Counted from the stretch's first letter, positions 4,306-50,233 are shown. The stretch: 64,000 nucleotides of DNA from a virus (IMGVR_UViG_3300029305_003510:1-64000), one strand, 5' to 3'. Made by a program: numbers and translations. The notes: generated by a model from the sequence alone, not told the origin.

Positions 4306-5244
4306 ATGACTAATTACCGCAAATTGATTGTAGATAGCGCAATTTCCTATGTTGGAACAAAGGAGCCCTCTGGCGATGACCAGTTCATTACTGCATATAA
4401 TAAATGGGCTGGTGCTAACTTTAGCGTAGACACTACTCCCTGGTGTGCTATCTTCGTAACTTTCAACGCACGTATGGTGGGTGTGCCCACCAATATCATT
4501 CCTAACTTCGCCAGTTGTAAGGTTGCCATTGACTGGTATAAACAGCGTGGACAGTGGCATGATCGAACCAGCGGATATAAGCCCAAGAGTGGTGATCTCT
4601 GTTTCTTCGACTGGCAGGTCGATAAGAAAGCGGATCATGTTGGTATCGTTACCGAGAATGACGGATCTAAAGTCTATGTTGTTGAAGGCAATACTAAGGG
4701 CACCGGCACTGTTTATGGCGTGCTGAAGAAGAGCTATGTGCTCTCCAGCAAGTATATTCTTGGTTATGCTTCTCCTGATTATACCGGTAAGAGTGTATCC
4801 GGAATCGCCAATCCGACTCAGTTGTCCAGCATGGTTAAATCTTCTTACATCAAGAAATATCAGACCTGGCTGAATCAGAACTATGGGTTCTCCCTGGTTG
4901 TTGATGGTAGCTTTGGCCCTAAAACTCGTAAAGCTTCTATCATGGCTTGGCAGATGCAGATGAATGCAAGTTTTATCACCTGCAAGCTTGAAGTAGACGG
5001 TATATATGGTCCTCTGAGTAAGAAGCAGTGCGATGCACATCCGCTGAAGAAGAACTCGAAGTGTACCAATCTGATCTATATCCTGCAGGGTCTCTTGTAT
5101 GCACATGGATATGATCCAAAGGGCTTTGACGGTATCTTCGGCTCTGGTTGCCAGACTGCTGTTCGCGCTTTCCAGAGAGCTCGTTCTATCAACGAAGCTG
5201 ATGTTGTCAAGGCTATGACTATGGAATCCCTGTTCAACAAGTAA
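4306..5244 (+). CDS. Endolysin-like CHAP amidase with two C-terminal PG_binding_1-type domains
   Basis: PWCAIFV (catalytic Cys), DHVGIV (His), VEGN; VDGSFGPKT, DGIYGP and DGIFGSGCQTAVRAFQ repeats. Confidence 0.85.
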   Translation: MTNYRKLIVDSAISYVGTKEPSGDDQFITAYNKWAGANFSVDTTPWCAIFVTFNARMVGVPTNIIPNFASCKVAIDWYKQRGQWHDRTSGYKPKSGDLCFFDWQVDKKADHVGIVTENDGSKVYVVEGNTKGTGTVYGVLKKSYVLSSKYILGYASPDYTGKSVSGIANPTQLSSMVKSSYIKKYQTWLNQNYGFSLVVDGSFGPKTRKASIMAWQMQMNASFITCKLEVDGIYGPLSKKQCDAHPLKKNSKCTNLIYILQGLLYAHGYDPKGFDGIFGSGCQTAVRAFQRARSINEADVVKAMTMESLFNK

Positions 5245-6463: not shown

Positions 6464-8425
6464 ATGGGAAAAGAAAAGGAACTTCTGAATCGTGATGTTA
6501 GTTTCCTGAGTTTCAATCGCCGTGTCTGCGATGAGGCGGCTAAGAAACGACACACATTAGGAGACCGTGTCATGTTTCATGGAATCACATTCAGCAATCT
6601 GAATGAGTTCCTGATGGTTCGATACCCTTCGACTGTTGAACTTGATAGTGAAGAACAGGTCAAAGAAACGGTTGAATATATCGGCAAACACTATAAGATG
6701 CTGGCGGAAAGGTTCCGTGATTTCAATAAGGAACATAAGATCATCCGAAGCATCAAAAGTCTCAGCAAAGACGAGCGGAAATGGGCTGATCAATATTTCA
6801 AGAAGTCTGTATTCCCCGCTCTCCTGCCTATCACAGTAGACAAAGCTCGCAGAGCAAATATCCATGCGGGTATGTATATTCTGGTAATCACGGAACGAGA
6901 TGATGAAGAGTCGGTCGGCTACATTGAAATCTCGAATAAGCTGGATCGATTCATTCCTATCCCCGGCAAACAGGGTGTGATCGCAATCGAGGATCTTGTA
7001 CAGGAAAATCTGAAACAGGTTATCCATGGTTGTAAAATTATCCGGTCTTGTCCATTCAGCATTTTGAGGTCTGCTGAAGTATATAGTCAACCGGATCGGC
7101 ATATGGACCCCTATGACCTGATTAAAGAAGTCCTCCTGCAACGAGAAGAATCTTGGATCACACAACTGGAAATCGGGTCTGACAAGAAGGAGTGTATTAA
7201 GACTATTCGCAAACTCCTTCCAGTTAATCCTAATACAATCATTTTCGCAACAGAACGGATTCGTCTCGCTGATCTGAAGAAGATCCCGAGCAGTATCTAT
7301 AAAAATGGAAACACTCCTCGGAAGCTGAAGATCTACAATACGTTCCCAAATGAGTCTGTCTTTGATTATATCAAGAGAAAAGATAGACTCTGTTTCCACC
7401 CCTATGAAAGCTATGAGGATTCGATGGTCCGATTTCTTGAGGAAGCTTCTACAGATCCTGATGTAGTCAGTATCCGTATCTGTCTTTATCGGGTCTCGGA
7501 ACGAAGTCGTATCATCGATGCACTGCTCAAAGCGGCTGACACCGGCAAGCTTGTTATCGTCTTAGTTGAGCTCAAAGCTCGATTTGATGAGAAGCATAAT
7601 ATGCAGGTGTCAAACATTCTCAGAGAAGGTGGTATCCGTATCGTCTATACGAAACCGGATATCAAAACTCATGCAAAGGTCTGCCTGGTTACACGTAAGG
7701 AGAAGAAAGGTCTTCGGATCTATTCCCATATCGGCACTGGAAACTACTCCGAGAGCAACAGTAAGCTCTATACGGATTATAGTTACTTTACTGCCGATCA
7801 GGAGATTGGTTCTGATTTGACACAGTTCTTTAATCTGTTGACATCTGACCAGGGCGACTTTAAATCTGAGAGAATTATCTATGCTCCATACAATCTCAAG
7901 AGTGAAGTAGTAGATAATATCAACAAGCAAATCAAGTTAGCGAAAAATAAGAAACCTTCCAGGATCACGATTAAGTGTAACGCAATCACCGATGAAGGCG
8001 TAGCTAAGAAGCTTATTGAAGCTGCTGAAGCCGGCGTCAAAGTAACACTGATTGTTCGATCCGCATGTATTATTCAACCCCAGAAAAACATCGAGATCTT
8101 CTCGATTGTTGGTAGTCAGCTTGAGCATAGTCGTGTGTATACGTTCGGTACTGGTAAAGATCAAAAGGTGTATATCGGTAGCGCAGATCTTATGACACGC
8201 AACCTGTCAAGAAGAAACGAGCTGATGATCCTGGTTGAACCTAAAGAGCTTAAAGCTCGAATTATCGACCACATTAAGATGTATCTTCGCGATACTTGTA
8301 ATCGGAGAAAAATCTTACCCGGATATAAGTATGAAGATATAAAACCTGGCAAAGATAAGAAACCCTACAACTGTCAGGAAGAATTCAGACGTGAAGCAAA
8401 GCGTCTATCAATCGAAGGGAGTTAA
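6464..8425 (+). CDS. ppk1: Polyphosphate kinase 1
   Basis: Motifs NRDVSFLSFNRRV, SNLNEF, HPYESY, LYRVS, ELKARFDE, KTHAK (phospho-His), HIGTGNY, YTDYS, LEHSRVY and GSADLMTRNLSRRNE; full length at 653 aa. Confidence 0.93.
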   Translation: MGKEKELLNRDVSFLSFNRRVCDEAAKKRHTLGDRVMFHGITFSNLNEFLMVRYPSTVELDSEEQVKETVEYIGKHYKMLAERFRDFNKEHKIIRSIKSLSKDERKWADQYFKKSVFPALLPITVDKARRANIHAGMYILVITERDDEESVGYIEISNKLDRFIPIPGKQGVIAIEDLVQENLKQVIHGCKIIRSCPFSILRSAEVYSQPDRHMDPYDLIKEVLLQREESWITQLEIGSDKKECIKTIRKLLPVNPNTIIFATERIRLADLKKIPSSIYKNGNTPRKLKIYNTFPNESVFDYIKRKDRLCFHPYESYEDSMVRFLEEASTDPDVVSIRICLYRVSERSRIIDALLKAADTGKLVIVLVELKARFDEKHNMQVSNILREGGIRIVYTKPDIKTHAKVCLVTRKEKKGLRIYSHIGTGNYSESNSKLYTDYSYFTADQEIGSDLTQFFNLLTSDQGDFKSERIIYAPYNLKSEVVDNINKQIKLAKNKKPSRITIKCNAITDEGVAKKLIEAAEAGVKVTLIVRSACIIQPQKNIEIFSIVGSQLEHSRVYTFGTGKDQKVYIGSADLMTRNLSRRNELMILVEPKELKARIIDHIKMYLRDTCNRRKILPGYKYEDIKPGKDKKPYNCQEEFRREAKRLSIEGS

Positions 8426-26922: not shown

Positions 26923-29074
26923 ATGCCTAAAGAAAAAGGAAAACTGAACATCAAAAACCGAGATGCGTATAAATGTTTCATACCATCTCCAATCGAACAC
27001 TATGAAACGCCGACCAAAATTAAATCGGTCCGCTTTGTTCGATCCTCTCCCGATGAAAAATATCGGAAACTGAAAAAGAAAGGGTTGAACATCGACATCA
27101 CCAACCCTGAGATTTATGTCAACGGGAAGAAACCTACAGATGGTATTTTCTCTCCACTCTTTGGTGCCGACACAACACAGGATACACCCGTCTATACCTG
27201 TGATTGCCATAAACTAACCGGTGGTGTTAATCGTGGTCGTATCTGCCCTGATTGTGGATCGGAAGTCCGTACGATTGAAGCTGACCTTCGTATCACCGGA
27301 CATATCGACATTGCTCCATATCATATCATGACTTATCACGGATATATCGCAATGTCCAAAGTATTCAAGAATCTCGGGGATATCATTAAGACCAATAAAC
27401 GCATCACACGATCTGGTAAAATCGCAGAAAGCGATATGCCCACGATTATGGATCTTTACGACGACTATGAAGAGCTCTATGAGCATAAGACTGGTCTCCC
27501 TAAAGAGATCGCATTCATGTCAAAGATCCCTGTTTATTCTGCACGCCTACGCCCGTTGATGCAACAGAATATGGTTATGACGATTCTGGATGTGAATAAA
27601 CGCTATCTTTCCATTACAAACCTGAGCGGTATTCTGAAGTCTACGCAGTTTATGCCAGAATTTCATCGGGAAATTGAAATCCAGCGTACGCTGAATCAGA
27701 TCCAACAGGACTTCAATGATATCACAACTATTGTCAATGAACAGATTAACAGTAAATCTGGCGTGTTCCGTCGAGCATTAGCATCTGGTCGTCTTGACAA
27801 CTCTTCTCGTCTGGTTATCACTCTCGGCACAGATCTCATGGCGCATGAAGTTGATGTCCCATATCAGATGATGATGGTCCAATACGAAGAGGAGATCGCA
27901 AACTACCTTTCCCGTATTCAGGATATTCCCGTTTCCAGGGCTATCGATATTGTGGAAGAGAATCAGACAACACCTACACCTCTCTTTGTGAAAATTATTA
28001 ATCAGCTTTTGAAAGCAAAGAAAGGTATTTGGATACTCGATAACCGAAATCCGACCATCTCGGAATCTGGCGTTCAGTATGTTCGTATTCGAAAGATCCA
28101 TGATGATCCCACGGATATGACTATGCATCTACCTCCGGATGTTCTCGGTCTGCTCGCAGCTGACTTCGATAGATGGATGAGAGTCCAATCTGTCCCCTCC
28201 TACAGGAATGTGGGATGTGGAACCAATCTAATTGCTGGGAAGTGCTAAAGCCTCTAAGCTCTTTAATACACTTTTAGAGTTACGAAAGTAGAAACAAGTT
28301 AGAGGATGGGTATATGGTTAAATCCTAAGTACCTGGAGTACAATGTGCAATCAGCAGCGAAACTTTATAAATTAACAGTAGATAGCATATGGTAATGCGA
28401 TGGATTATAAATCCGTATGGATGACAGTTCGATTCTGTCTCTCAGATAATTTATAAAGGACGTTCAACGACTATTATGTAGGACTCAAGCGAGTTCGAAA
28501 TGGTTGGGGTCCCAATGTCTAGACTCTAAATTTAGATAATGGATCATGATATAGTCTCTACATGTAGGTAACACCTACAGCAGTCTGTAAAATTAAGATT
28601 CAACTAACTGGCGGGATTTAAGATAGCGCGCATATCTGTTTCGTTAAGAGTTGACGGTTTTATTAGACGCTCTCGAAGTAGCGACTCGAGAGGAAGATTT
28701 AGGGAGATCAGCTGACTGGAGTTTCGGTTAAGAACCCGAACTACCACCCACTCTTTATGACCATGTGTCCGACATACGCTTTCATCGATCGTGCTGATGG
28801 TAAGTTTAATCGGGCCATGGATTTCAAGAAAGACTATGCAGCATTAATTGCTGCAGCTTGGGATATTGATGCAGCATATGATCAATTTCTCTCCAATCCG
28901 GAAGCAGAACATTATGAGATACTGAAACAAATGGGTCTGGATGATGTAGAGAATGAATCCGCTCGTGATAGACGTGAAATGGTTTTCCGCACACTCATGT
29001 CTGGAAAGGTATCGGGTAAGTTCCGGGATCGTTTTATAGACCCTTTTGGTTTCCGCCAGGAGAGTGTCATGTAA
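26923..29074 (+). CDS. Phage multisubunit RNA polymerase beta'-N subunit (non-virion type); exons 26923-28170 and 28703-29074, 539 aa spliced
   Basis: DGIFSPLFG, Zn finger CDC..CPDCG, KSGVFRR..GR..SSR.VI and NRNPTI. Splicing restores catalytic AADFD|GDQL in frame with ORF 28757..29074. Confidence 0.9.
28171..28702 (+). ncRNA. Group I self-splicing intron (532 nt, no homing endonuclease ORF)
   Basis: 5' exon ends in U and intron ends in G. Core elements: P AATTGCTGGGAA (28230), Q AATCAGCAGC (28349), R GTTCAACGACTA (28462), S ATGATATAGTCT (28546). P7 is GACTA/TAGTC. Confidence 0.92.
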
Positions 29075-46683: not shown

Positions 46684-47481
46684 ATGAGAAAGATTTCTTA
46701 CCCTGAATACAAGAGACGTGTATTCAATGAAGCTCTTCTGGAATGTTTCTGTCAGATTCATGGACAGGTTCTGAATGGCGACTGCGCTGAAGATCAAATG
46801 TGTGATGAGCGTTTGGCTGGTATGGCTAAACGTCTCTGCCACACTTTCTTCGAGGATGAGTTGAAGCTGAAGACTTCTACCATCAGCCAGACCAAGGCCC
46901 GTATCTCTGAAGCGGCTGAGTTCATCAAGGACTGTGCCGATACTGCTGAAGAGATCGCTGAGAAAAAGGCTGATCTGGCCGAAGAGGAGAAGATCGAGGT
47001 TACCGATGAGGATAATATCGAACTGTCTCCTGAAGAGGAAGGTGTTATTGCTCAGCTGTTCGATAGTAAAGCTCCTACCCCTCAGGTTAACGCTATCCGC
47101 GATGCTACTGTGAAGGCTCTGCTTGCTGAGGATCGTAAGGCCGAAGAGATCCGTCAGTCTATTGATATTGCACAATCCAAGGTTGCGGCTGGTGCTGCAC
47201 CTGAGACTCTGGAAGAGACTGTGAATCGTCTGAATAAGATTGGTCCTACTTCTCTGATGAATGCGATCATGAACAATGTATCCGCTGCAGCTATCAAGGA
47301 TATTAATGAGAGTGGTAGATTCAGTTCTGTCGGTAAAGCTCTCTCTGAGAATGCTGATGAGATCAAAAGTCGTGCAGTTGCTATTTACGCACTGTATGAG
47401 ACCTCCAGTGTTCTGGGTATTCATAAATATACCAGCGCTGAAGTGAAGAAGCTGGCTCTGGATATTTTCTATGAAAAGTAA
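46684..47481 (+). CDS. Probable virion protein
   Basis: SD AAGGAGG; biased codons; late operon. Confidence 0.65.
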   Translation: MRKISYPEYKRRVFNEALLECFCQIHGQVLNGDCAEDQMCDERLAGMAKRLCHTFFEDELKLKTSTISQTKARISEAAEFIKDCADTAEEIAEKKADLAEEEKIEVTDEDNIELSPEEEGVIAQLFDSKAPTPQVNAIRDATVKALLAEDRKAEEIRQSIDIAQSKVAAGAAPETLEETVNRLNKIGPTSLMNAIMNNVSAAAIKDINESGRFSSVGKALSENADEIKSRAVAIYALYETSSVLGIHKYTSAEVKKLALDIFYEK

Positions 47482-47483
47482 AA

Positions 47484-47519
47484 ACAAGGAACCCCGAGGT
47501 TATTCCTCGGGGTTCTTGT
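47484..47519. terminator. Bidirectional terminator
   Basis: ACAAGGAACCCCGAGG-TTATT-CCTCGGGGTTCTTGT. Confidence 0.7.
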
Positions 47520-48027
47520 AATTTACATTCTCAGAAATCAGTTTCTTAGGAGTCGTATCAGCAGGGTCATAATATCTCAACTGGCCTGCCATCTTAGCGA
47601 TACTCCATGCTTCATATCGATCAACAAATCTTCCAGATGTTGTCAGGAATCCTTGTTCCTCTCGATCCATATCACGATCAGTTTTATACAATTCCATGTT
47701 TGCGAAAGATTCGATACATTGACCATGGTTGCCGCCTATTACGTACTTGGCAGTATCTTCGCCTTTGATGTAATATTTGATAGCAGCGCACATAATGTAT
47801 TCAGGTTCAACGATCTTTGTGAATCTCTTCATCTGATAACCATCTCGCTCCACCACTTCATTCCACATATTAGCAGGACGAACATAGATAGGTTTATCGC
47901 CATATAAAGCCTGATAGACAACCATATCTTCCATAGTCTCACTATGCTTTGCAATAGCGATGACCTTATAAAGATTACCTTTAAAATGTCGGTATTTACT
48001 ACCGATACTGATTTCATTAAAAGTCAT
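47500..48027 (-). CDS. DUF1653-domain protein fused to a phage GFLT..GRFVDR domain
   Basis: YRHFKGNLYKV..HSET..VVYQALY..YVRP; QGFLTTSGRFVDRYEAW. Confidence 0.8.
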   Translation of the reverse strand: MTFNEISIGSKYRHFKGNLYKVIAIAKHSETMEDMVVYQALYGDKPIYVRPANMWNEVVERDGYQMKRFTKIVEPEYIMCAAIKYYIKGEDTAKYVIGGNHGQCIESFANMELYKTDRDMDREEQGFLTTSGRFVDRYEAWSIAKMAGQLRYYDPADTTPKKLISENVNYKNPEE

Positions 48028-48060
48028 ATTAAAATCCCTCTTTCGGGTTTATTGTATTTA

Positions 48061-48147
48061 TGGTGGAGGATAAGGAACTCGAATCCTTATGAAATTACTT
48101 TCACTAGACCCTGAATCTAGCGCGTCTGCCAATTCCGCCAATCCTCC
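48061..48147 (-). tRNA. tRNA-Leu(CAG)
   Basis: Acceptor GGAGGAT/ATCCTCC-A-CCA; D arm GGCGGAATTGGCAGACGC; anticodon arm CTAGA-TTCAGGG-TCTAG; long variable arm; TTCGA T-loop. Confidence 0.92.
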
Positions 48148-48275
48148 ACATTTAATATATGTGTACTACTCAAGCCTTCTTCCAACAAGTAGTACGTGCA
48201 TCAGTCCGATCCGTATTTACAGCCCGGTCTAGGCTTTTCAGTCATAAGACTACTTAGCATGCCGATGCGTCCCTG

Positions 48276-48381
48276 TGCATAAAGTGGGATTCGAACCCAC
48301 GGGCCCGGAGGTATAGGATCTATAGGCATCCACCTATCAGGCTCTAGCCAAGTCAACATTAAACCACTCTGTCATTTATAC
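48276..48381 (-). ncRNA. tRNA-like RNA (106 nt) with non-canonical anticodon/variable region
   Basis: Acceptor GTATAAA/TTTATGC; D arm ACAGAGTGGTTTAATGT; perfect T arm GTGGG-TTCGAAT-CCCAC; enlarged middle section. Confidence 0.6.
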
Positions 48382-48402
48382 ATATTTAAAAGAATTCACC
48401 GT

Positions 48403-48663
48403 GTGCCTGTTTACCTATATTTCTGTCACCCAGTGCCGGCGACGTACTTTATAGCCAGGCTTCAGCAATACAGGGCACTACTCCCGTAAAGCCCAGGGGC
48501 ACGGCTACTCTACTCCCTGAAGATCGACTAGCTTTATCTCACGATCAAAGTGATCCCGCCCAGCTACCCATTCACCGTAGGATCTTAAAGCTGCGCCTCC
48601 CATTAGGTGCGACCTAAATATACCGGATTTCACTCCGATACCCTTACAGCAGGAAAGAGGCAT
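48403..48663 (-). ncRNA. Candidate large structured ncRNA (~260 nt)
   Basis: Terminal TGCCT/AGGCA stem, several internal hairpins, GC-rich, no ORF. Confidence 0.45.
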
Positions 48664-48665
48664 AT

Positions 48666-48779
48666 ATGTAAAACCGCTTAGATTATCACATTTGTTGCTC
48701 GCATAGGAGCGATGTCGTTATTAGATGCCAGCAAGTGGCACAATCTCATTTATACAAACAGTTTTCAGCGATGTTACAT
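48666..48779 (-). ncRNA. Candidate structured ncRNA (~115 nt)
   Basis: Stems AAAACTGTTT/AAGCGGTTTT, AGATTGT/ATAATCT, TGCCA/TGGCA and GCTC/GAGC. Confidence 0.4.
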
Positions 48780-48785
48780 TCAAAC

Positions 48786-49032
48786 GGATGTAGGTATGGA
48801 TTTGCACCATACATAAGCACACTTCCTTCTGACGATAAAATCGTTCATGGGCTAACAGGCGTCACCATGATCGGATGGATTACCACTACTTGCGATTAGC
48901 CGGGTCTACCATACCTGCACTCTTACCGACATCACAGTAGTTTGGGTATTGTGCTCTTACCTTTAAGCGTCTACTTGTTGTCACCAATAGCAGTGACTTT
49001 ACCACAATTAGTGTCTATTCCGCCACTACATC
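48786..49032 (-). ncRNA. Giant tRNA-framed RNA (247 nt)
   Basis: Perfect acceptor GATGTAG/CTACATC; Leu-type D arm GGCGGAATAG..GTAGACGC with an insert; T arm GTATGG-TGCAAAT-CCATAC; ~150-nt structured anticodon domain. Confidence 0.65.
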
Positions 49033-49036
49033 ACGA

Positions 49037-49050
49037 TTATAAATATTGTT
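49037..49050 (-). promoter_or_regulatory. Putative late promoter for the ncRNA cluster
   Basis: AACAATATTTATAA, 4 nt upstream of the 247-nt RNA. Confidence 0.5.
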
Positions 49051-49430
49051 TAGGTGTCAATCTCAATATAAATGAGTCGACCAGTGCGACTGATATCAAA
49101 GATCTCTTTGATAAAATCCTCATTGATTGTAGAAGAGTCATATGCAAACTCATAATTCTCGGAGATATAATCAAGAACCTCATCGATCTTGTCATCCATC
49201 AGTTCCTCAATTACATCGGCCATAGTTTTACTGAGTTCTTTATCAGTGATGTTGATATCTTTCTTTCTACGAAGAATAAAACCAGAATTCTTTGTCGTCT
49301 GAAGCTCAACAACATCACCATAATCTTCACAAATCGCTTTTGTTACCGATTTGGCAAGATCCTTCATATCATACAACGTCAGCAAAGTGTGCATCACCGA
49401 CAGATGCACATATTTGTCATTCATTTTCAT
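49050..49430 (-). CDS. Hypothetical protein
   Basis: 126-aa ORF with G-rich SD. Confidence 0.65.
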   Translation of the reverse strand: MKMNDKYVHLSVMHTLLTLYDMKDLAKSVTKAICEDYGDVVELQTTKNSGFILRRKKDINITDKELSKTMADVIEELMDDKIDEVLDYISENYEFAYDSSTINEDFIKEIFDISRTGRLIYIEIDT

Positions 49431-49552
49431 ATTTAGTATACCCCCAAAAGTTTCTTTGAAAAATTGGAATCCCTCAGCGATTCCTAAATATACATTATGT
49501 CTTGAAACTAAAAACTGAAGTGATGAATCTATATCGCTGTTAATAATTCTTT

Positions 49553-50233
49553 TTATACTTCTCCTATTTTCTGGAGAACAATCCTACCAACGGAGATTCC
49601 TTCTTTGATTGTTTTACGGCTCTTCAATTTCTTATAAATGTAATCAGATTCATGCTTCACTAAATATCTAACTGTGATTTCCACACGAGGAAGCAAACTG
49701 TACCATTTACTAATCTCTCCTCGCCAGAAGATATCATCATCTGCAATTAGTACATCAGTGAGCATATCAGTATAGCACTTCTCAATGTTATCATAATCTG
49801 GTTTATCAACTGGATTTAATAATTGCGCCTCAAATAAAATCACCTCATCTGGTGGAACTTTGTTTGGCATTTCAAGGAAAATATTAAAAGATATCTCCGC
49901 AGGAGTGTTGATCATATGCAATGTATCAACAACCTGTTTCATTGCTTTTTCAAAATACTTTTTATTCGCAGATGCATTCGGAGAAAACGTGTGTCCATTG
50001 GCAGTGCGAGGCCTGTCTGTCTTCATAGGATACTCATACAGCACTATTCGAATGGATTCATATTCCCGTTCTTTCATGATAAGAAGTGCCTTCTCACGGG
50101 CTTTCTTGATCCATTTATCTGGATTCTTCTGTGTAGAAAGATATTGACGCACACGCTCTGTTGCATCAGTAATTCGATCATGATACTTTGCATCGTATTC
50201 GGCAAGTTTCTGATCTCGAGATTTAATCTTCAT
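49553..50233 (-). CDS. rusA: RusA-like Holliday junction resolvase
   Basis: KTDRPR; KPDYDNIEKCYTDML; IADDD; K.Y...PRVEI. Confidence 0.8.
   Translation of the reverse strand: MKIKSRDQKLAEYDAKYHDRITDATERVRQYLSTQKNPDKWIKKAREKALLIMKEREYESIRIVLYEYPMKTDRPRTANGHTFSPNASANKKYFEKAMKQVVDTLHMINTPAEISFNIFLEMPNKVPPDEVILFEAQLLNPVDKPDYDNIEKCYTDMLTDVLIADDDIFWRGEISKWYSLLPRVEITVRYLVKHESDYIYKKLKSRKTIKEGISVGRIVLQKIGEV

Follow-up and report, generated by a model that had tools for sequence, protein, structure and literature searches.

A non-coding gap in a distant jumbo phage genome holds a small RNA-gene island with one representative of a structured RNA family not described before

A small island of RNA genes occupies the longest non-coding gap in the genome of a distant jumbo phage. 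It is made up of one real tRNA, two tRNA-shaped RNAs and one member of a previously undescribed structured RNA family. This new family, which has no match in Rfam 15, is the discovery of real value here. The window analysed, 64,000 nt in length, makes up the start of a 230,855-bp IMG/VR virus record (G000) that is 89% complete. The gap covers 1022 nt of the 231-kb genome (48028-49049, minus strand), with a gene for a 126-aa protein at one end and a DUF1653 gene at the other, and its GC content is 45-53% compared with 32-40% in the flanks. Relatives of the 126-aa protein fall into only three clusters, at 98%, 90% and 80% identity, and these lineages provided the close comparisons used below. 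An initial annotation of the stretch had found no credible ORF, and this was borne out for 48028-49050; a 52-aa ORF at 48663 has an ACG start in the 90% relative. The word AGTAG is over-represented in the gap (7 observed vs 0.83 expected), most of which is explained by loop and internal-loop motifs of the family RNA.

The RNA polymerase beta-prime subunit of G000 is 22-29% identical to those of AR9, PBS1, S6 and phiR1-37, indicating that G000 is a distant member of the jumbo phages with their own multisubunit RNA polymerases. More than 100 relatives (41-80% identity) of an 882-aa virion-type protein were found on metagenomic contigs of ~230-250 kb. AGGAGG ribosome-binding sites are strong in G000, yet one of the homologues of this protein carries the label 'uncultured Duncaniella'. 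The beta-prime gene is interrupted by a group I intron at 28192-28580 (plus strand; Rfam 45 bits, E 3e-10, slightly below the gathering threshold of 50). A tRNA-like element at 28380-28442 is inserted in the P6 region of this intron; it scores 40.7 bits with RF00005 over model positions 5-66 and has no acceptor end.

What had been annotated as a structured block of ~260 nt proved to be a real conserved structured RNA of 273 nt (48392..48666, minus strand), supported by comparative folding and by a covariance model, R1. The full-length alifold used six rows, two each from the window lineage and from units A and B of L013/L015, and 29 of its 67 pairs showed compensatory changes. Reading from the 5' end, the RNA consists of a four-way-junction extension (48661-48595), the hairpins H1 (48584-48552) and H2 (48546-48522, loop UGAGA..GCUAGU), and a conserved 3' module of 128 nt that folds as a three-way junction (48519-48392; 150 bits with R1). 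The extension, of ~70 nt, is an addition specific to the window lineage and covaries with the 80% relative. H1 and H2 together form a domain of ~70 nt that precedes the core in most phages. Both hairpins formed in all ten sequences examined, with differing stem sequences and compensatory changes, and the H2 loop in the family reads UGA..GCUAAU. Folds of single sequences were no better than shuffles for both long RNAs of the gap (z -0.9), a score that is uninformative here.

The basal stem of the 3' module is made of P1 and P2, interrupted by a loop-E-like AGUA/GAA internal loop. From the junction extend P3, a long hairpin with the loop GUAGUGC, and a second arm made of P5, another AGUA/GAA loop and P4, which carries CACU in its loop. 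A strand of 26 nt at the 5' side of the module is nearly invariant, as is the 11-nt 3' junction strand, whilst the helices covary freely. The family is defined by P1-P5 together with the invariant strands CAGGGAGU..GUGCCCCUG and CACGGYGAAU, all of which are present in the window RNA. The P3 and P4 arms are of similar length; UAGUG and CACUR, the invariant sequences of their loops, show complementarity in 97% of cells. Because both loops are invariant, a contact between them is hypothetical, and it could equally be intramolecular or intermolecular. The loop-loop contact and P1 are in fact both beyond covariation support, since they rest on invariant bases, and an alternative local hairpin CAGGG/CCCUG is equally possible.

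Model R1 was built from seven sequences, whose alignment had 92.6% of cells paired and 17 of 33 pairs with compensatory changes. On the window it returned 150 bits (E 3e-39) at 48384-48525, and on seven sequences outside the training set 44-73 bits (E 1e-10 to 1e-18). Four virus records were searched with the model and each gave one significant copy. In the alignment of 14 sequences, from about nine phage lineages, 88.2% of cells were paired compared with 35-44% in slid controls. The covariation score of this alignment was 0.58, against 0.24 in shuffles, and none of 500 shuffles reached 0.58. Compensatory changes were seen at 22 of the 33 module pairs in the 14 sequences. The initial annotation had looked to covariation across related jumbo phages for confirmation, and for this RNA covariation was found across these lineages.

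Members beyond the relatives of G000 were found by a pattern built from the invariant strands. The module is present in a 292-kb phage record (G001), between tRNA-Gln and tRNA-Lys, in two 93-kb viral contigs, before tRNA-Trp, and in six metagenome contigs. G001 shares with G000 only the distant RNA polymerase beta-prime and has no 882-aa protein, and still the two modules are 71% identical. As these two phages share little else, the family spans very divergent phages. G001 also encodes an RtcB RNA ligase (G001:C1:137361-138383), and none is encoded in G000. Other searches yielded no further members. When the region, the module and its counterparts in G001, L046 and L110 were compared by BLAST with 50,697 records of cultured phages, the tRNA-Leu alone was matched, whilst in IMG/VR a 16-mer scan gave 11 matches and a two-motif pattern 10 further loci, all of them chance. 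A looser pattern gave 44 matches in genome contigs, none of which nhmmer confirmed beyond one weak partial match, and a text search of the literature for the invariant strand returned no paper.

The genomic company of the family RNA is consistent. At all eight loci with tRNA genes on the contig, the module lies in a tRNA array and has the orientation of the tRNA genes. In seven of about nine lineages (the window, G001, L046, L109, L111, L112 and L114), the terminal GAAU is followed at a distance of 3-12 nt by a tRNA or tRNA-like element, which is tRNA-Trp in four of the seven; a tRNA usually precedes the module too. The exceptions are the 80% lineage and two contigs, L110 and L113, which have no tRNA directly downstream. 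L110 (JAEIGA010003752.1) is a 12.9-kb metagenome contig that carries 20 tRNA genes and an ARAGORN-predicted tmRNA in addition to the family RNA. In L046, a GC-rich non-coding block of ~350 nt without Rfam match lies between tRNA-Trp and the next tRNA (4365-4712).

The nearly invariant strands around the junction, set among helices that covary freely, could be the active site of a self-cleaving ribozyme or the pocket of a riboswitch-like ligand binder. The three-way junction, equal-length arms and complementary loops recall the 'tuning-fork' aptamers known from the general literature, and the RNA adjoins RNA ends that must be cut. In most phages, however, the family RNA lies between tRNAs and not in a 5' UTR. 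No Rfam ribozyme or riboswitch family matched it at E<=10, and no cleavage-site signature was identified. We thus consider either identity decidedly unlikely.

The DNA around the island varies strongly among relatives. The 98% copy has the same 1022-nt gap. In the 90% copies, whose contigs stop inside the gap, RNA1 (the larger of the tRNA-shaped RNAs), the family RNA and the second tRNA-shaped RNA (tRNA-like 2) are kept at ~88% identity with several compensatory changes. The 80% copies have a gap of 708 nt with two tandem copies of the family RNA and are without RNA1, tRNA-like 2, tRNA-Leu or any other tRNA at the gap. As these relatives retain the promoter motif described below and the family RNA, tRNA punctuation is not a fixed requirement. 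Between the window and the 80% relative, identity is 87.5% for the module, compared with 68-78% for the flanking genes. In L013, a tRNA-like core with D, anticodon and T arms (28 bits) lies in the 5' half of the second tandem copy, at 6842-6897; it has no acceptor stem, and its anticodon-loop position reads CUA.

Relatives at 53-77% identity, reached through the 882-aa protein, showed neither RNA homology nor a tRNA at the locus. In L036-L042 the same spot is occupied by a 40-nt terminator hairpin or by assorted small ORFs (e.g. DUF6275). IMG/VR relatives found through the DUF1653 protein had no synteny and no RNA homology, and a search with a 757-aa virion protein returned no loci. The junction between the 126-aa gene and a convergent 265-aa gene (47481-49050) is thus a hypervariable accessory locus. 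As the cassette is missing from most relatives and the content of the locus varies, it is best described as an accessory island.

The tRNA claimed for the end of the cassette is real. ARAGORN called a class II tRNA-Leu(CAG) with encoded CCA at 48061..48147 (minus strand), the only tRNA called in the whole genome, and with RF00005 it reached 48.7 bits (E 8e-9; gathering threshold 29). That score came from a 2-kb scan; Rfam at gathering threshold over the whole window omits this tRNA, apparently an effect of the speed filter. It is 84% identical over 57 nt to the tRNA-Leu of T5-like phages.

Both tRNA-shaped RNAs are also present where they had been placed. RNA1, a tRNA-framed RNA of 247 nt without encoded CCA (48786..49032, minus strand), has a 7-bp acceptor stem, a D stem with an insert of ~45 nt, a helix GAGCACA/UGUGCUU around an insert of ~130 nt, and a T arm. 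Its fold is shared with the 90% relative (73 consensus pairs, 4 of them compensatory, with one in the T stem and the enclosing helix also represented). Towards its 5' end it is similar to the D arm of tRNA-Leu, and RNA1 looks like a chassis derived from tRNA-Leu with the ~130-nt insert where the anticodon or variable arm should sit. RNA1 shares the words GCUAAUCG and AGUAGUG with the family RNA; that it is a diverged copy of that RNA was nevertheless rejected. No RNA1 homologues were found outside the close relatives.

The second element, tRNA-like 2, was read from the sequence at 48276..48381 (minus strand; 106 nt, no CCA). Its acceptor stem reads GUAUAAA/UUUAUGC and its T arm, which is canonical, GUGGG-UUCGAAU-CCCAC; the D arm is class II-like. 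In its centre a UAGA-capped hairpin stands in place of the 7-nt anticodon loop, and this hairpin (GGM-UAGA-KCY) is kept in the 90% relative through a C-G to A-U change. ARAGORN called the element at relaxed settings only, as 'tRNA-Ser(AGA)' with a 32-nt 'intron', and did not call RNA1, at relaxed settings either. RF00005 gave no match at E<=10 on either RNA, neither forms a complete cloverleaf, and Rfam found nothing of note on the minus strand at tRNA-like 2, only a 9-bit beta_tmRNA fragment. Both RNAs, which are known from two lineages, lack a usable anticodon arm, and decoding is improbable for either.

The acceptor stem and T arm form the minimal recognition unit of RNase P and RNase Z. 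Like tRNAs and tRNA-like RNase P substrates, RNA1 and tRNA-like 2 retain this unit, in the form of a 7-bp acceptor stem with a T arm. They differ from tRNAs in having large inserts and no functional anticodon arm or CCA, and they are not scored by the tRNA model.

The two remaining blocks had been annotated as structured, and neither gained support from comparison or from thermodynamics. The block of ~115 nt at 48667..48785 (minus strand) is a poorly conserved spacer in which indels already separate the window from the 90% relative, and its shuffles fold equally well (z -0.7). The spacer between tRNA-like 2 and tRNA-Leu (48148..48275, minus strand; 128 nt, annotated as ~110 nt) contains two hairpin regions and folds at z -2.2, a stability reached by 6 of 200 shuffles; its only other copy is 98% identical and offers no comparative support. 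Just upstream of tRNA-Leu it has a two-mismatch match to the core of the class 1 promoter-like motif described below. Searches of other phage arrays by nhmmer with RNA1, both spacers, the 5' extension and tRNA-like 2 gave no matches.

These results bear on whether the locus is a decaying tRNA island, in which insertions would have turned RNA1 and tRNA-like 2 into pseudo-tRNAs without a processing role, the spacers would be junk, and the tRNA-Leu and family RNA alone would be functional. A genome with one ARAGORN tRNA, the failure of the Rfam tRNA model to score either element, their lack of homologues elsewhere and the weak fold z-scores in the gap would all suit such decay, as would a hypervariable locus in which these elements are missing from the 80% relatives and from all relatives checked at 53-77% identity. 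Yet their acceptor and T stems are intact, with compensatory changes between the window and the 90% lineage, whilst the adjacent spacer decays with indels. Inserted tRNA frames also recur: a tRNA of L046 (3330-3478) with an insert of ~75 nt in the anticodon-loop region still scores 49.5 bits with RF00005 over 149 nt. Decay is thus a rather unlikely explanation, and we favour the reading in which the tRNA-shaped frames would have been retained for processing.

A promoter-like motif, AACA-N5-TATAAT (AACAATATTTATAAT), overlaps the stop codon of the 126-aa gene at 49036..49050 (minus strand) and would drive transcription of the island. It is kept in the 98%, 90% and 80% relatives, and in the 80% lineage the sequence just downstream of it has wholly diverged. 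De novo analysis of upstream regions in G000 gave two promoter-like classes. Class 1, TATATA[TC]TATA, has 35 sites at <=1 mismatch, 33 of them intergenic. Class 2, RACA-N4-TATAA[TA], is late-type; its 22 sites are mostly intergenic, 30-90 nt upstream of genes, and the motif occurs upstream of structural genes. Across the genome the N4 spacing was found at 22 sites and N5 at 4 sites.

The late promoter consensus of the AR9-type non-virion RNA polymerase is AACA(N6)TW. Class 2 of G000 fits this consensus, and G000 encodes a distant AR9/PBS1-like RNA polymerase beta-prime. By contrast, the cassette motif is one base longer in its spacing (N5) and does not match AACA, six bases and TW. The late-type promoter of the initial annotation thus stands as a motif conserved in three lineages, for which the label 'late-type' is only approximate since the spacing is off by one. 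As the motif is conserved in relatives, it may still be active despite N5. Internal TGTATAAATGA repeats at ~48755 and ~48380 were rejected as promoters; they fit neither class, and the copy at ~48380 coincides with the acceptor strand of tRNA-like 2.

On the minus strand, a single terminator-like site follows the promoter motif, an intrinsic terminator at 47489..47515, with an 11-bp stem (8 G-C pairs) followed by a T run. None was found on the minus strand between 49050 and the DUF1653 gene. This gene (47500..48027, minus strand) encodes 175 aa, with an N-terminal DUF1653 domain (Pfam PF07866, E 1e-27) and a C-terminal part matching phrog_839, and has a ribosome-binding site GAGGG 9 nt before its ATG. 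As the sole terminator follows it, the likely unit runs from the promoter through the RNAs, tRNA-Leu and the DUF1653 gene to the terminator, and the gene is probably co-transcribed with the RNAs. The proposed polycistronic operon of non-coding RNAs is thus upheld as an ORF-free cassette of several RNAs, whilst the unit as a whole would not be purely non-coding, as the DUF1653 gene precedes the first terminator.

Such an arrangement might suggest that the RNA region is a structured cis-acting leader controlling the DUF1653 gene. No terminator separates the RNAs from the gene, and in the 80% relatives the second family-RNA copy stops ~25 nt before the ribosome-binding site of this gene. In the window, however, 350 nt with a tRNA-like element and a tRNA intervene before the gene, and in G001, L046, L109, L111, L112 and L114 it is a tRNA, not the gene, that directly follows the family RNA. 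A leader function is therefore highly improbable, and we retain the reading of the region as a set of RNA genes.

We also compared the family RNA with known RNA families. The Rfam 15 scan proposed in the initial annotation, which named GOLLD, ROOL, tmRNA and Y RNA, left it unmatched at E<=10, a result that covers four members (window, L013, G001 and L046). GOLLD (RF01998) and ROOL (RF03087) gave no model match on any of the four, and 5S rRNA was also rejected as its identity. The bacterial RNase P RNA models (RF00010, RF00011) had no match at E<=10 in G000, G001 and G002, with positive controls, and R1 scored E. coli rnpB at 4.8 bits (E 0.84). ARAGORN found no tmRNA, at relaxed settings too, and Rfam only the 9-bit fragment; RNA1 has U3-A70 in its acceptor stem where the tmRNA criterion is G3-U70. 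The group I intron model (RF00028) had no match in 47500-49600 at E<=10, and the same model detects the intron at 28192-28580. For the bacterial Y RNA (YrlA) there was no Rfam match, nor was a Ro60/TROVE domain found in G000-G003.

The family RNA might still be a divergent member of one of these families (GOLLD, ROOL, RNase P RNA, tmRNA, group I intron, 5S rRNA or Y RNA) that the models missed. Its three-way junction and loop-E motif recall 5S rRNA, and short words recall the RNase P S-domain. It shares a tRNA-island setting with GOLLD and ROOL, and with GOLLD also the combination of a conserved 3' portion and a variable 5' portion (PMC12286853). Against this, Rfam 15, RF00010/RF00011, the ARAGORN tmRNA search and the Ro60/TROVE search were all negative, in an analysis in which the group I positive control was detected at 45 bits. 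A missed known family is thus extremely improbable, and we treat the RNA as a new family.

GOLLD and ROOL have been described as phage-encoded and near tRNA islands (PMC12286853), and both traits were found for the family RNA. All are structured non-coding RNAs of phages or prophages, often near tRNA islands. The family RNA also resembles GOLLD in its conserved 3' module and varying 5' part, and both GOLLD and ROOL in the tRNA-like core of L013 unit B and in complementary loops that could in principle act between molecules. It differs from them in having no covariance-model similarity, in its length (~135-275 nt vs ~580 and >800 nt) and in a secondary structure that is a single three-way junction. 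Another likeness is to species 1 and 2 (rnaC/rnaD) of the T4 tRNA cluster. These are stable non-tRNA RNAs, co-transcribed with tRNAs and matured by the tRNA-processing machinery. The family RNA likewise accompanies phage tRNAs, though T4-like phages are unrelated to these jumbo phages and the two were likened by description.

Taken together, our results favour a mechanism that we hold, as a whole, to be probable. The RNA island would have been inserted at a hypervariable spot downstream of the 126-aa gene. Transcription would start from the AACA..TATAAT motif at ~49040, pass the RNAs and then the DUF1653 gene, and stop at the terminator (47515-47489). Host RNase P would cut this primary transcript at the 5' end of each tRNA or tRNA-like element, and RNase Z or exonucleases at the 3' ends. 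These cuts would release the family RNA as a stable, compact RNA, presumably acting in trans. From its genomic company, a role linked to tRNA or to the takeover of translation would be expected, and such a role is likewise suspected for GOLLD and ROOL.

The layout, with GAAU placed 3-12 nt before a tRNA or tRNA-like 5' end, fits that expected if RNase P and RNase Z release the family RNA. Tandem copies without a flanking tRNA in the 80% relatives, and the lack of a downstream tRNA in L110 and L113, indicate that tRNA-guided release is not universal. With these corrections, a tRNA-punctuated RNA cassette appears to be the best reading of the layout. The layout and at least one novel conserved RNA from the original proposal stand, whilst two of its six RNAs have no structural evidence.

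Phage tRNA islands harbour large enigmatic RNAs, GOLLD and ROOL, and the family RNA is a third, far smaller tRNA-island family that is easier to study. Its covariation is strong, a nearly invariant strand of 26 nt is common to phages that otherwise have almost no detectable similarity, and the RNA recurs in a simple setting, immediately upstream of a tRNA. It is conceivable, though at present doubtful, that this tRNA-island RNA (~135-205 nt) is a new functional class of phage RNA with its own biochemical activity, used in host takeover by deeply divergent jumbo phages. Judging from sequence features, the RNA might be catalytic, or it might bind part of the tRNA or translation machinery through its two sarcin-ricin-like AGUA/GAA motifs. 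ROOL and GOLLD self-assemble, and by analogy the family RNA might do so through its UAGUG/CACUR loops.

The window adds tRNA-shaped frames whose sole remaining use is apparently as carriers or as handles for processing, in a hypervariable locus that RNA cassettes move in and out of. The family RNA, at 130-200 nt, is of a size that suits chemical probing, crystallography, cryo-EM and RNase P assays, which makes the function of tRNA-island RNAs more directly testable.
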